NCBI RefSeq assembly: GCF_045037415.1
Contig: NZ_CP173438.1
DNA length: 64,000 nt
Source: Escherichia coli
Lineage (GTDB): Bacteria; Pseudomonadota; Gammaproteobacteria; Enterobacterales; Enterobacteriaceae
Reading direction: 5' to 3' (one strand)
Of the stretch, positions 34,007-37,000 are shown piece by piece. The first letter of the stretch is position 1, and every line of letters starts with the position of its first letter. Position numbers: made by a program.

Positions 34007-37000
34007 TTATCTCCTTATAACGCCTGGATTTTTGCCCACACGCTGTCATCAACGGTAATACCGTTACGGCGGTTTTCTGCCAGCAGGGTAGTAAATTCGT
34101 GGCCGGGTAAGCGAATGGCCTGATTTTCGTCAGCACGCTCGGCACTGGTAACGTAATCCATAATGCGTTGCAGTTTGGCATCGCGGGTGGGACCGTCGAT
34201 AAGCTTGTCCACTTCAATGGCAATAAAAATTTGTGAAATGCCGTATTCGTCGCTGTTGTCCTCGGTGACTTCGGCAACCGATGCGCCGTCAGAAAGGAGG
34301 GTAGCGATCATATCCAGCACAATCGACATGCCCGAACCTTTCCAGTAGCCCATCGGCAAAATGCGGCGATTTTTCTCGATAACGCCAGGTTCTTTGGTCA
34401 AATTGCCCTCATCATCAAAGCCACCATCTACCGGGAGCTGACGACCAGCCAGGCGATTAACTTCTAACATGCCGTAAGAGAACATCGACATCGACATATC
34501 GACCATGGTGATCGGCGTGGAAGGAATGGCGACGATCAGCGGGTTGGTGCCGATGCGACACTCTTTTGCGCCCCACGGTGGCATTACGGCGATGGAGTTG
34601 GTCCAGCAAATGCCAATGTAGCCTTTTTCCGCCGCCTGCCAGCCGTAGCTGCCGCCGCACATCCAGTGGTTGGCATTACGTAGTGCCACCAGACCAATAC
34701 CGTGATCGGCAGCCAGTTCAATGGCGCGATCCATCATCTTTTTCGCTGTCAGGTTACCGATCGAACGCTGGGCGTCCCACTGTTCAATTGCGCCGAGGCT
34801 GGTTATACGTTTGGGTTGGGCATCAGGAATGATATCGCCGTTTTCCAGTTGTTGAATGAAACGAGGGAAACGATTAACGCCGTGAGAATAAACGCCGGAT
34901 TCGGTGGTGCGGGCGAACATCTCTGCACAGGCGTCAGCCGTTTCGCTGTCAACGCCGCGTGAAATTAAGACCCGATTAAAGGCTGCTTTTAACTGCTCAA
35001 ATGTCACTTTCATCCCAGGCTTCCTTGTTTTTTTGATCGCTTTTTTGGCTTAAAATTTCAATATACGAAACTTGATTTCAAATATATCGATCACTTTTTA
35101 ACAAAGCAATCTGATTGATGAATTTCAAAAAACTTAAAAATCAAGTGGTTATAAATTATCTGTCGAGATCGTGAACTACGGCACACTTTGCGCTACCATC
35201 AGGACGCGACAAAATGGGGAAAGAAGTGATGGGAAAAAAAGAGAACGAGATGGCGCAGGAAAAAGAGCGTCCAGCCGGAAGCCAGAGTCTGTTTCGTGGG
35301 TTGATGCTGATTGAGATTTTGAGCAACTATCCAAACGGTTGTCCGTTGGCGCATCTTTCGGAGCTGGCTGGTTTAAATAAGAGTACCGTCCATCGCTTAT
35401 TGCAGGGATTACAGTCCTGCGGCTATGTGACCACCGCGCCCGCCGCAGGGAGTTATCGCCTGACCACCAAATTTATTGCCGTCGGGCAGAAGGCGCTATC
35501 TTCGCTGAATATCATTCATATCGCCGCTCCGCATCTTGAGGCACTGAACATCGCCACTGGTGAAACCATTAACTTCTCCAGCCGCGAAGACGATCACGCT
35601 ATTTTGATTTATAAGCTGGAACCCACAACCGGGATGCTGCGAACCCGTGCCTATATAGGCCAGCATATGCCGCTCTACTGTTCCGCAATGGGCAAGATCT
35701 ACATGGCGTTTGGTCACCCGGACTACGTGAAGTCATACTGGGAAAGCCATCAGCATGAGATCCAGCCGTTAACCCGCAATACCATTACCGAGCTGCCCGC
35801 GATGTTCGACGAACTGGCGCACATTCGTGAAAGTGGAGCGGCGATGGACAGAGAAGAAAACGAACTCGGCGTCTCCTGTATTGCTGTTCCGGTGTTTGAT
35901 ATTCATGGGCGGGTGCCGTACGCCGTGTCGATTTCGCTTTCGACATCACGTCTGAAACAGGTGGGAGAGAAAAATCTCCTGAAACCACTGCGTGAAACCG
36001 CGCAGGCTATTTCTAATGAGCTGGGATTTACTGTCAGGGACGACCAGGGCGCGATTACATAACCCTTTGGACAAGTGCCAAAACTTTAACATTTCCTTCG
36101 TTGGATCAAAGCAGTAGGGACGCGCTCTCTGGCACTCTGCTGTTTTAGTGCAAAGGAGTGATCATGAACCGGTTTATTATTGCGGATGCGACGAAATGTA
36201 TCGGTTGCCGTACCTGTGAAGTGGCTTGCGCAGTGTCGCATCAGGAGAATCAGGATTGCGCTGCGTTGTCACCAGACGAGTTTATTTCCCGTATTCGTGT
36301 CATTAAAGACCACAGCTGGACCACGGCAGTAGCCTGTCATCAGTGTGAAGATGCACCGTGCGCGAATGTCTGCCCTGTTGACGCGATAAGCCGCGAACAT
36401 GGGCATATTTTCGTTGAACAATCACGTTGCATTGGCTGTAAAAGCTGTATGCTGGCTTGCCCGTTTGGTGCGATGGAGGTCGTTTCTTCGCGCAAAAAGG
36501 CGAGGGCGATTAAGTGCGATCTGTGCTGGCATCGGGCGACGGGGCCGGCCTGTGTTGAAGCCTGCCCGACAAAGGCGTTGCAGTGCATGGATGTCGAGAA
36601 AGTGCAGCGGCATCGGCTACGGCAGCAGCCTGTTTGAAACGTTTTTCCGGCGTTTCTCAACGCCGGAATAGCGTATTAATGGCTTTCAGCCCAGGCTCTT
36701 TCTATCTCTTCCGCCAGAATCTTCACACCCGCCTCAATTTTCTCCGGCTCTGGTACGTAGTTCATGCGCATACATTGATGCGTATGCGGCCACGGTTTAT
36801 CCAGTCCCGGGAAGAAGTTGTGCCCCGGCACCATCAGCACGCCGCGTGCTTTCAGGCGCTGGTAGAGCTGCTCGGTCGTAATGGGCAAATCCTTAAACCA
36901 TAGCCAGAGGAAAATGGCTCCTTCCGGTTTATGAATCAGGCAGCGATCTTCCGGTAAATAGCGGCGAATGATGGCGATAGTTTCCTGAACACGCTGGTAG

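Follow-up and report, generated by a model that had tools for sequence, protein, structure and literature searches.

The spacer between the divergent genes yiaK and yiaJ is a characterized control region of Escherichia coli: repression by YiaJ, control by the cAMP receptor protein (CRP) and by the integration host factor (IHF), and a recognition sequence of the repressor, the PlaR-box, are already known. The present analysis deals with this region in a 64-kb stretch of E. coli DNA (64,000 nucleotides of contig NZ_CP173438.1, assembly GCF_045037415.1; hereafter the window), in which positions 35014-35213 form a 200-bp intergenic spacer between yiaK (minus strand) and yiaJ (plus strand; named plaR in the K-12 annotation). 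The closest described system is the same locus of E. coli K-12, for which YiaJ repression, CRP and the PlaR-box have been reported (PMC6237786, PMC6958661, PMC2395238). Nothing essential differs between the two; the published box is the 21-bp palindrome only, and a third copy of its half-site and the spacing of the sites across the order are added here. The window and K-12 MG1655 differ at 5 of the 241 aligned positions (35065, 35105, 35131, 35134 and 35145, i.e., in the spacer), and the K-12 literature is thus applicable to the window.

The PlaR-box is a 21-bp palindromic consensus, ATnTGAAACnnnGTTCAnTT, derived from ten high-affinity targets of genomic SELEX (gSELEX, systematic evolution of ligands by exponential enrichment); where it occurs between plaR and yiaK, it overlaps the yiaK promoter known from experiment (Shimada et al. 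2019, PMC6958661). In the same study, gSELEX and gel shift place PlaR on this spacer (not base-resolved), and deletion of plaR leads to a strong derepression of yiaK, as seen by Northern blot and with a single-copy lacZ fusion. Chromatin immunoprecipitation with exonuclease treatment (ChIP-exo) gives two YiaJ peaks in the spacer and shows that YiaJ at the yiaK-S promoter "occupied the position of RNAP", i.e., of RNA polymerase (not base-resolved); deletion of yiaJ results in faster growth on ascorbate (Gao et al. 2018, PMC6237786). The published effectors that release YiaJ/PlaR from DNA in E. coli are L-ascorbate and galacturonate. In Klebsiella, YiaJ is released by L-ascorbate-6-phosphate.

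Other systems resemble the region in part. The ula (L-ascorbate) region also combines a local repressor, CRP and IHF in a divergent spacer and serves an ascorbate-related pathway, but UlaR is of the DeoR type, its operators are unrelated and IHF is described there as a repressor. The arrangement of CRP and IHF can be likened to that of promoters activated by a distal CRP through an IHF bend. Within the IclR family, the PcaU and PobR operators of Acinetobacter contain three half-site copies, two as a palindrome and one as a direct repeat at a distance of one or two turns; however, these half-sites are of 10 bp and the proteins are activators, whereas here the half-sites are of 5-6 bp, the protein is a repressor and the binding of the third repeat is presumed. 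Finally, the KdgR box (pectin/2-keto-3-deoxygluconate (KDG) regulon of Dickeya and E. coli) is, as here, an AT-rich palindrome with TGAAA/TTTCA half-sites (PMC6958661). It belongs to another regulator and another regulon, and its flanks are AATGAAAC / GTTTCATT instead of GCGAAAT / ATTTCAAAT.

A first-pass annotation of the window had quoted three related motifs from the spacer and proposed them as YiaJ half-sites. The comparison described below makes it very probable that the first of these motifs contains the YiaJ operator, and that the sites of the spacer are an operator, an IHF site, a CRP site and promoters, not one repeated motif. The operator is the following feature:

35063-35083, unstranded: YiaJ/PlaR operator O1, a 21-bp match to the PlaR-box, ATACGAAACTTGATTTCAAAT (consensus match and conservation).

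Its core palindrome, GAAAC-TTG-ATTTC, is located at 35067-35079 with its centre at 35073. The printed PlaR-box consensus has 20 letters and one T was added to reach 21, i.e., ATnTGAAACnnnGTT(T)CAnTT; with respect to this form, 35063-35083 has 3 mismatches in the 18 specified positions, on both strands. It is the sole match at ≤3 mismatches in the window (chance expectation: 0.71 per 64 kb, roughly 0.002 for the 200-bp spacer). The core GAAAYNNNRTTTC is matched exactly, and the pattern GAAAY-N3-RTTTC is found nowhere else in the window.

The palindrome was then compared across the Enterobacterales. A scan with the YiaJ protein, using one genome per species, gave 80 orthologous loci with 73-100% identity, ranging from Escherichia to Serratia, Pectobacterium, Yersinia, Hafnia and Edwardsiella; 59 of them have yiaK as the divergent neighbour. 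Two comparisons were made: (i) an alignment of 46 sequences of 231-265 nt (the window and 45 loci), projected onto the window coordinates, since the alignment of all 59 spacers with the window (60 sequences) is gappy owing to insertions in some spacers; (ii) a gap-free anchoring on the palindrome of the 78 operator-bearing sequences (77 loci and the window). The conservation values given below come from the first one. GAAAY-N3-RTTTC is present upstream of the yiaJ orthologue in 77 of the 80 loci, including loci where the divergent gene encodes an ATP-binding cassette (ABC) transporter ATPase. The right half, ATTTC, has a conservation of 1.00; for the left half, most sequences have GAAAT and this strain has GAAAC. 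The central 3 nt occur in 14 variants, against nearly invariant half-sites, which is the pattern expected of a dimeric helix-turn-helix protein. Because it is the unique PlaR-box match and travels with the yiaJ orthologues, with its halves kept and its spacer free, the palindrome appears to be the YiaJ operator. A YiaJ site over the yiaK start also fits the reported shift by YiaJ of a fragment spanning -50 to +121.

The palindrome was not matched in three loci. In an uncultured Klebsiella metagenome-assembled genome (L027), about 70 bp are deleted, removing the yiaK core promoter together with the YiaJ operator; in Intestinirhabdus alba (L055), yiaK is absent from the fetched locus. Both keep the IHF site, the CRP site and the yiaJ promoter. 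In Budvicia (L077), yiaK is about 1 kb away and a more tolerant pattern finds a degenerate copy, TATATGAAATTGCATTCCAAAAA.

The same palindrome could be also, or instead, an operator of KdgR, a paralogous IclR repressor that would then cross-regulate the spacer. The PlaR-box resembles the KdgR-box, with the half-sites TGAAA and TTTCA common to both, and plaR mRNA goes up in a kdgR mutant (Shimada et al., PMC6958661); KdgR cross-talk may thus occur at the spacer. As an account of the palindrome itself this is improbable, given that yiaK is derepressed in the plaR mutant but absent from the transcripts listed as increased in the kdgR mutant (PMC6958661), and that the palindrome accompanies yiaJ orthologues in nearly all loci. 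Compared by hand with the KdgR consensus, it matches at about 13 of 20 positions.

The three quoted strings do exist in the spacer: gaaacttgatttcaaatat at 35068-35086 (motif 1), gattgatgaatttcaaaaaac at 35113-35133 (motif 2) and aaaatcaagtgg at 35137-35148 (motif 3). The expectation that YiaJ half-sites would be accompanied in the spacer by IHF and CRP sites was also right, as consensus matches and conservation now indicate. The motifs are real as strings, but they do not make up a repeat family. The proposed unit, TTGA(T)TTCAAA, is in the wrong register, the conserved unit being the half-site ATT(T/C)C(A/G) arranged as GAAAY-N3-RTTTC. With reference to dinucleotide-preserving shuffles of the spacer, the longest repeats reach only the level of shuffled sequence: the longest perfect inverted repeat is of 9 nt, ACTTGATTT (35070-78) with AAATCAAGT (35138-46), equalled or exceeded in 16% of shuffles, and the longest direct repeat is of 8 nt, ATTTCAAA, equalled or exceeded in 45%. 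ATTTCAA is the sole enriched word, and its 3 copies, at 35055, 35075 and 35122, are all on one strand (shuffle mean 0.23, P about 0.001, a value to be read with the fact that the word was picked post hoc, after inspection of the sequence); its copy at 35055 was absent from the quoted motifs. A repeat family is thus not established by the sequence alone, and the case therefore rests on genome comparison and on the literature.

In the alignment, conservation is concentrated in a few blocks: (i) 35051-35093, consensus TAAATTTCAcTATgCGAAATcTGATTTCAAATAtagCGATCA; (ii) the short word CAA at 35107-09; (iii) AAAATCAA-NNNN-TTr at 35137-51, i.e., an IHF-like core; (iv) AGATCGTGAACT-NNNN-CACACTTTGCGCTACCATCAG at 35166-35202, i.e., the CRP site and the block that follows it. 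The spacer outside these blocks is variable, motif 2 included. Conservation in other enterobacteria, which had been suggested as a check, thus separates the three motifs: motif 1 is conserved, motif 2 is not, and motif 3 is conserved as an IHF core. No part of the spacer is less conserved than motif 2, whose mean identity is 0.57 (vs. 0.72 for the whole). Escherichia coli, E. whittamii and Enterobacter retain its TTTCA (35123-27), whereas Citrobacter, Klebsiella, Raoultella and E. albertii have TTTTT or TTTTA there. Common to all genera in this region is a T-run with an A-run after it. No partner half-site stands at N3 spacing from motif 2, which fails as a YiaJ site. Motif 3 contains neither TTTCA nor TGAAA, is likewise without a partner at N3 spacing and fails as a YiaJ half-site; its conserved letters are AATCAA....TT, i.e., those of the IHF core.

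These results bear on the proposal that all three motifs (35068-86, 35113-33, 35137-48) are YiaJ half-sites, YiaJ then coating about 80 bp. The proposal draws on the three same-strand copies of ATTTCAA, on the 9-nt inverted repeat that links motifs 1 and 3, and on the two ChIP-exo peaks. However, the TTTCA of motif 2 is lost in four taxa despite a conserved operator and YiaJ, motif 3 is an exact IHF consensus whose variable positions are the N4 positions of IHF, neither motif has a partner half-site, and the inverted repeat is within chance (P = 0.16). With this, the proposal as a whole is very improbable; only motif 1, which contains the conserved PlaR-box match, stands as a YiaJ site. The 9-nt inverted repeat was considered separately as a pairing or looping element between the operator centre and the IHF core, and was rejected on the same chance level and on its lack of conservation (6 nt in other genera, already broken in K-12).

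Upstream of the yiaK promoter, the sites that motifs 2 and 3 belong to, and the CRP site, are as follows:

35139-35151, plus strand: predicted IHF core, AATCAAGTGGTTA, containing motif 3 (exact match to WATCAANNNNTTR).
35113-35138, unstranded: AT-rich tract 5' of the IHF core, containing motif 2 (T-run/A-run kept; putative IHF arm).
35170-35185, unstranded: CRP site 1, CGTGAACTACGGCACA (centre about 105 bp upstream of the operator centre and yiaK start).

Taken alone, the IHF consensus is of little weight, since the window contains 5 matches vs. 2.9 expected. The conservation pattern is more telling than the consensus match: WATCAA has a conservation of 0.95, NNNN of 0.49 and TTR of 0.78. Motif 3 is the left part of the predicted core. 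The 26 bp upstream of the core are AT-rich. An AT-rich arm often accompanies IHF cores, and motif 2 is most likely that arm, as judged from the sequence. IHF is said to modulate yiaK-S. The CRP site, CGTGA-ACTACG-GCACA, has 2 mismatches to TGTGA-N6-TCACA and the same type of conservation profile, with 0.99 for GTGA, 0.56 for N6 and 0.98 for CACA. Crp site 1 is reportedly centred at -106, which corresponds to the spacing of 104-108 bp found here. The first-pass annotation gave neither the position of this site nor the third half-site at 35055-35060.

The sequence at 35170-35185 is listed as the CRP site of yiaKLMNOPQRS (Price et al. 2008, PMC2395238 Table 2). In a full-text search of the literature with the literal site sequences, the CRP site alone turned up, in that paper; searches on yiaK with IHF and on yiaK-S returned no base-level data.

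A weak CRP-like 16-mer, ATTGATGAATTTCAAA, is present at 35114-35129, with 3 mismatches and a centre about 48 bp upstream of the yiaK start. It is not conserved beyond Escherichia and Enterobacter, and might be what has been called "Crp site 2", as we presume.

The geometry of the sites is nearly fixed. The start of the IHF core is 39 bp from the CRP centre in 77 of the 78 loci. The operator centre is at a distance of 65-69 bp from the IHF core and, in all loci, of 104-108 bp from the CRP centre (mode 105). This layout is not restricted to loci with yiaK. In two of the other loci that were looked at (L021 and L067), the divergent gene encodes a sugar ABC-transporter ATPase of roughly 510 amino acids. 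The loci where yiaK is not the divergent gene are L021, L024, L033, L038, L044, L047, L050 and most of L067-L080; nearly all have the same operator before the divergent gene, with IHF-like and CRP sites at the same spacing. Because the same layout fronts another gene in nearly all such loci, the control module is, on this comparative evidence, older than its link to yiaK.

Within the first conserved block, a further element adjoins the palindrome:

35054-35061, plus strand: third conserved half-site AATTTCAA, core ATTTCA at 35055-35060 (conservation; putative YiaJ contact).

It repeats the right half of the operator in direct orientation, at a distance of 20 bp, and corresponds to about +13 to +18 of the yiaK transcript. 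Anchored without gaps on the palindrome, its pattern is (A/T)ATTTCA(C/A); it is present in 78 of 78 operator-bearing sequences with a constant register of 20 bp to the right half, and its mean identity is 0.99, i.e., its conservation matches that of the palindrome. Both its core and the T-to-C variant that it tolerates (ATTCCA) are those of the palindrome halves. The whole layout is ATTTCA-N6-GAAAC-N3-ATTTCA. Since the half-site centres are about 11 and 9 bp apart, the three half-sites would lie on one face of the helix. A YiaJ tetramer would cover roughly 35050-35088, as IclR-family proteins are commonly dimers of dimers and the PcaU and PobR operators of this family have a third repeat. Neither this half-site nor the fixed operator-IHF-CRP spacing was found in the published accounts examined; both come from the present comparison.

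The role of the third ATTTCA can be read in two ways. It may be a promoter-proximal or 5'-untranslated element of yiaK, i.e., a -10-like pause, a second weak promoter (TTGAAA-16-GAAATT) or an mRNA signal, and not a contact of YiaJ. Its position within the transcript agrees with this, as does the relaxed promoter scan, which pairs TTGAAA (35081-76) with GAAATT (35059-54), both highly conserved; moreover, the second operator that some distant taxa possess (see below) is without such a companion. The shared core and T-to-C variant, the 20-bp register kept in all 78 sequences while the remaining 5'-untranslated region is poorly conserved (0.63), and the existence of palindrome-plus-third-repeat operators in the IclR family argue against a leader element, which is rather doubtful. 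We tentatively prefer, as a possibility somewhat short of even, that the YiaJ operator is tripartite, i.e., a palindrome plus a third half-site two helical turns away in the yiaK leader, bound by a YiaJ tetramer as in PcaU/PobR, and that the Escherichia-type spacer has lost a second, yiaJ-proximal operator retained by Serratia, Pectobacterium, Yersinia and Brenneria. With such a loss, autoregulation in E. coli would be left to the single distal operator or to CRP.

The distant operator concerned is found in several loci (L067-L073, L075, L076, L078, L080), about 100-160 nt upstream of the yiaJ match. In Pectobacterium, Serratia and Brenneria it is a second palindrome of the YiaJ type, ACAATGAAACGGCGTTCCAC (TGAAAC-GGC-GTTCCA), flanked by the CRP site and a yiaJ -10-like TAACAT; the corresponding sequence of Yersinia is ATAACGAAACACTGTTTCGTG (CGAAAC-ACT-GTTTCG). 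No counterpart exists in the Escherichia-type spacer, and in E. coli no second YiaJ operator was found near the yiaJ promoter within 4 mismatches. The Escherichia-type spacer looks like a deletion derivative, in which the CRP site is joined directly to the yiaJ -10 block. In Pluralibacter and Phytobacter massiliensis (L048, L049), where the yiaK leader is longer, the standard operator is supplemented by a further and better palindrome, ATAGTGAAATTGAATTTCACTAA, located in that leader about 285-300 nt upstream of yiaJ.

The promoters on both sides were placed with a relaxed scan:

35081-35086, minus strand: putative yiaK -10 hexamer TATATT, overlapping the right arm of the operator (relaxed promoter scan).
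35104-35109, minus strand: putative yiaK -35 hexamer TTGCTT, TTGATC in most other genera (relaxed scan; CAA at 35107-35109 conserved).
35186-35202, plus strand: nearly invariant 17-bp block CTTTGCGCTACCATCAG, holding the putative yiaJ -10 TACCAT (35194-35199).

The yiaK promoter would thus consist of TTGCTT, a 17-bp spacer and TATATT, and its start is predicted near 35074, in agreement with the reported 5' end of yiaK, 60 bp upstream of the ATG. The PlaR-box match in the plaR-yiaK spacer overlaps this predicted start and the -10 TATATT. For yiaJ, a start near 35206 is predicted and the -35 candidate GTGAAC (35171-35176) falls inside the CRP site; the -10 variants of other genera, TACGAT, TACTAT and TAGTAT, retain the pattern TAnnAT. 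The block CTTTGCGCTACCATCAG has a mean identity of 0.97 from Escherichia to Mangrovibacter and Edwardsiella, which exceeds the needs of a -10 hexamer, and it might be the site of the second YiaJ ChIP-exo peak. A related sequence, TTGCGGTAACAT, is kept in Serratia and Pectobacterium. A plus-strand promoter starting from the TTGACA-like word at 35098 was also considered and was rejected upon inspection of the alignment and of the relaxed scan, since no usable -10 accompanies it in any genus.

Taken together, these positions suggest how the region may work. YiaJ would bind the palindrome at 35067-35079, over the -10 and the start of yiaK, and block RNA polymerase; with the operator centre (35073) on the predicted +1 and the right arm on the -10, simple steric repression would follow. 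The third half-site at 35055-35060 would probably be contacted by the other dimer of a YiaJ tetramer, so that the operator would reach about +20. The yiaK promoter, with its weak -35, would depend on CRP bound about 105 bp upstream (35170-35185). IHF, at 35139-35151 with its arm at 35113-35138 and with fixed spacing between the sites, would presumably bend the DNA so that CRP reaches the promoter. Induction would take place upon the release of YiaJ from the DNA by its effectors. As the yiaJ -35 overlaps the same CRP site, CRP bound there would lower yiaJ expression. CRP at site 1 is indeed said to reduce the expression of yiaJ, which would be explained by its covering the -35 region.

It must be noticed that several points weigh against this interpretation: (i) the PlaR-box is a computational consensus of gSELEX targets and not a footprint; (ii) the E. 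coli spacer contains one operator-like sequence only, vs. two ChIP-exo peaks; (iii) a consensus promoter scanner at 9/12 matches finds no promoter in the region, the hexamers above being those of the relaxed scan; (iv) the second operator of the distant taxa has no adjoining third half-site, which weakens the tetramer reading.

The genes on both sides of the spacer are those that had been named at first, as borne out by the E. coli genome annotation and by Pfam:

34015-35013, minus strand: yiaK (2,3-diketo-L-gulonate reductase), first gene of the repressed operon (annotation and Pfam).
35214-36062, plus strand: yiaJ/plaR, IclR-family repressor gene, as annotated (annotation and Pfam).
35229-35231, plus strand: candidate true start codon ATG of yiaJ, 15 nt downstream of the annotated ATG at 35214.

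Similar DNA, annotated yiaL, yiaK and yiaJ, is present in 5423 of 5426 complete E. coli genomes, and the 2.1 kb around the spacer are 100% identical to E. coli strain 4/1-1. YiaJ has the two domains of an IclR-family regulator, i.e., an N-terminal HTH_IclR (PF09339, E = 1.2e-14) and a C-terminal effector domain IclR_C (PF01614, E = 1.5e-66); YiaK has an Ldh_2 (dehydrogenase) domain. At the annotated start of yiaJ (ATG 35214, 282 amino acids), another E. coli (L001) and most other genera have AAG, and the predicted transcription start near 35206 leaves a leader of 8 nt before this position. On the other hand, most genera keep ATG 35229 (MGKKENEM...) and, ahead of it, a ribosome-binding site of the GGAG type. 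Because the start codon and the ribosome-binding site are conserved there, ATG 35214 is not, and the leader would be only 8 nt, the annotated yiaJ start is probably wrong and the true start is probably ATG 35229.

The region is a textbook-style divergent control region of a minor carbohydrate pathway (use of 2,3-diketo-L-gulonate, ascorbate and galacturonate), with little importance beyond correct annotation. The practical gain is (i) a base-level placement, in part predicted, of the YiaJ operator, the IHF core, the CRP site and both promoters; (ii) evidence against two of the three motifs quoted at first as YiaJ sites; (iii) a candidate third half-site for YiaJ footprinting. The additions to what was known are modest, i.e., this third half-site, the fixed spacing across the order and the probable correction of the yiaJ start codon.

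The spacer has a G+C content of 34%. An RNA element (riboswitch or small RNA) was rejected, since an Rfam search of the spacer gave no match, even at E = 1. Three GATC (Dam) sites are present in the 200 bp, at 35035, 35089 and 35167 (shuffle mean 0.68, P = 0.02). Those at 35089, in the spacer of the yiaK promoter, and at 35167, abutting the CRP site, are kept across genera, and most other genera have an additional GATC in the -35 region.

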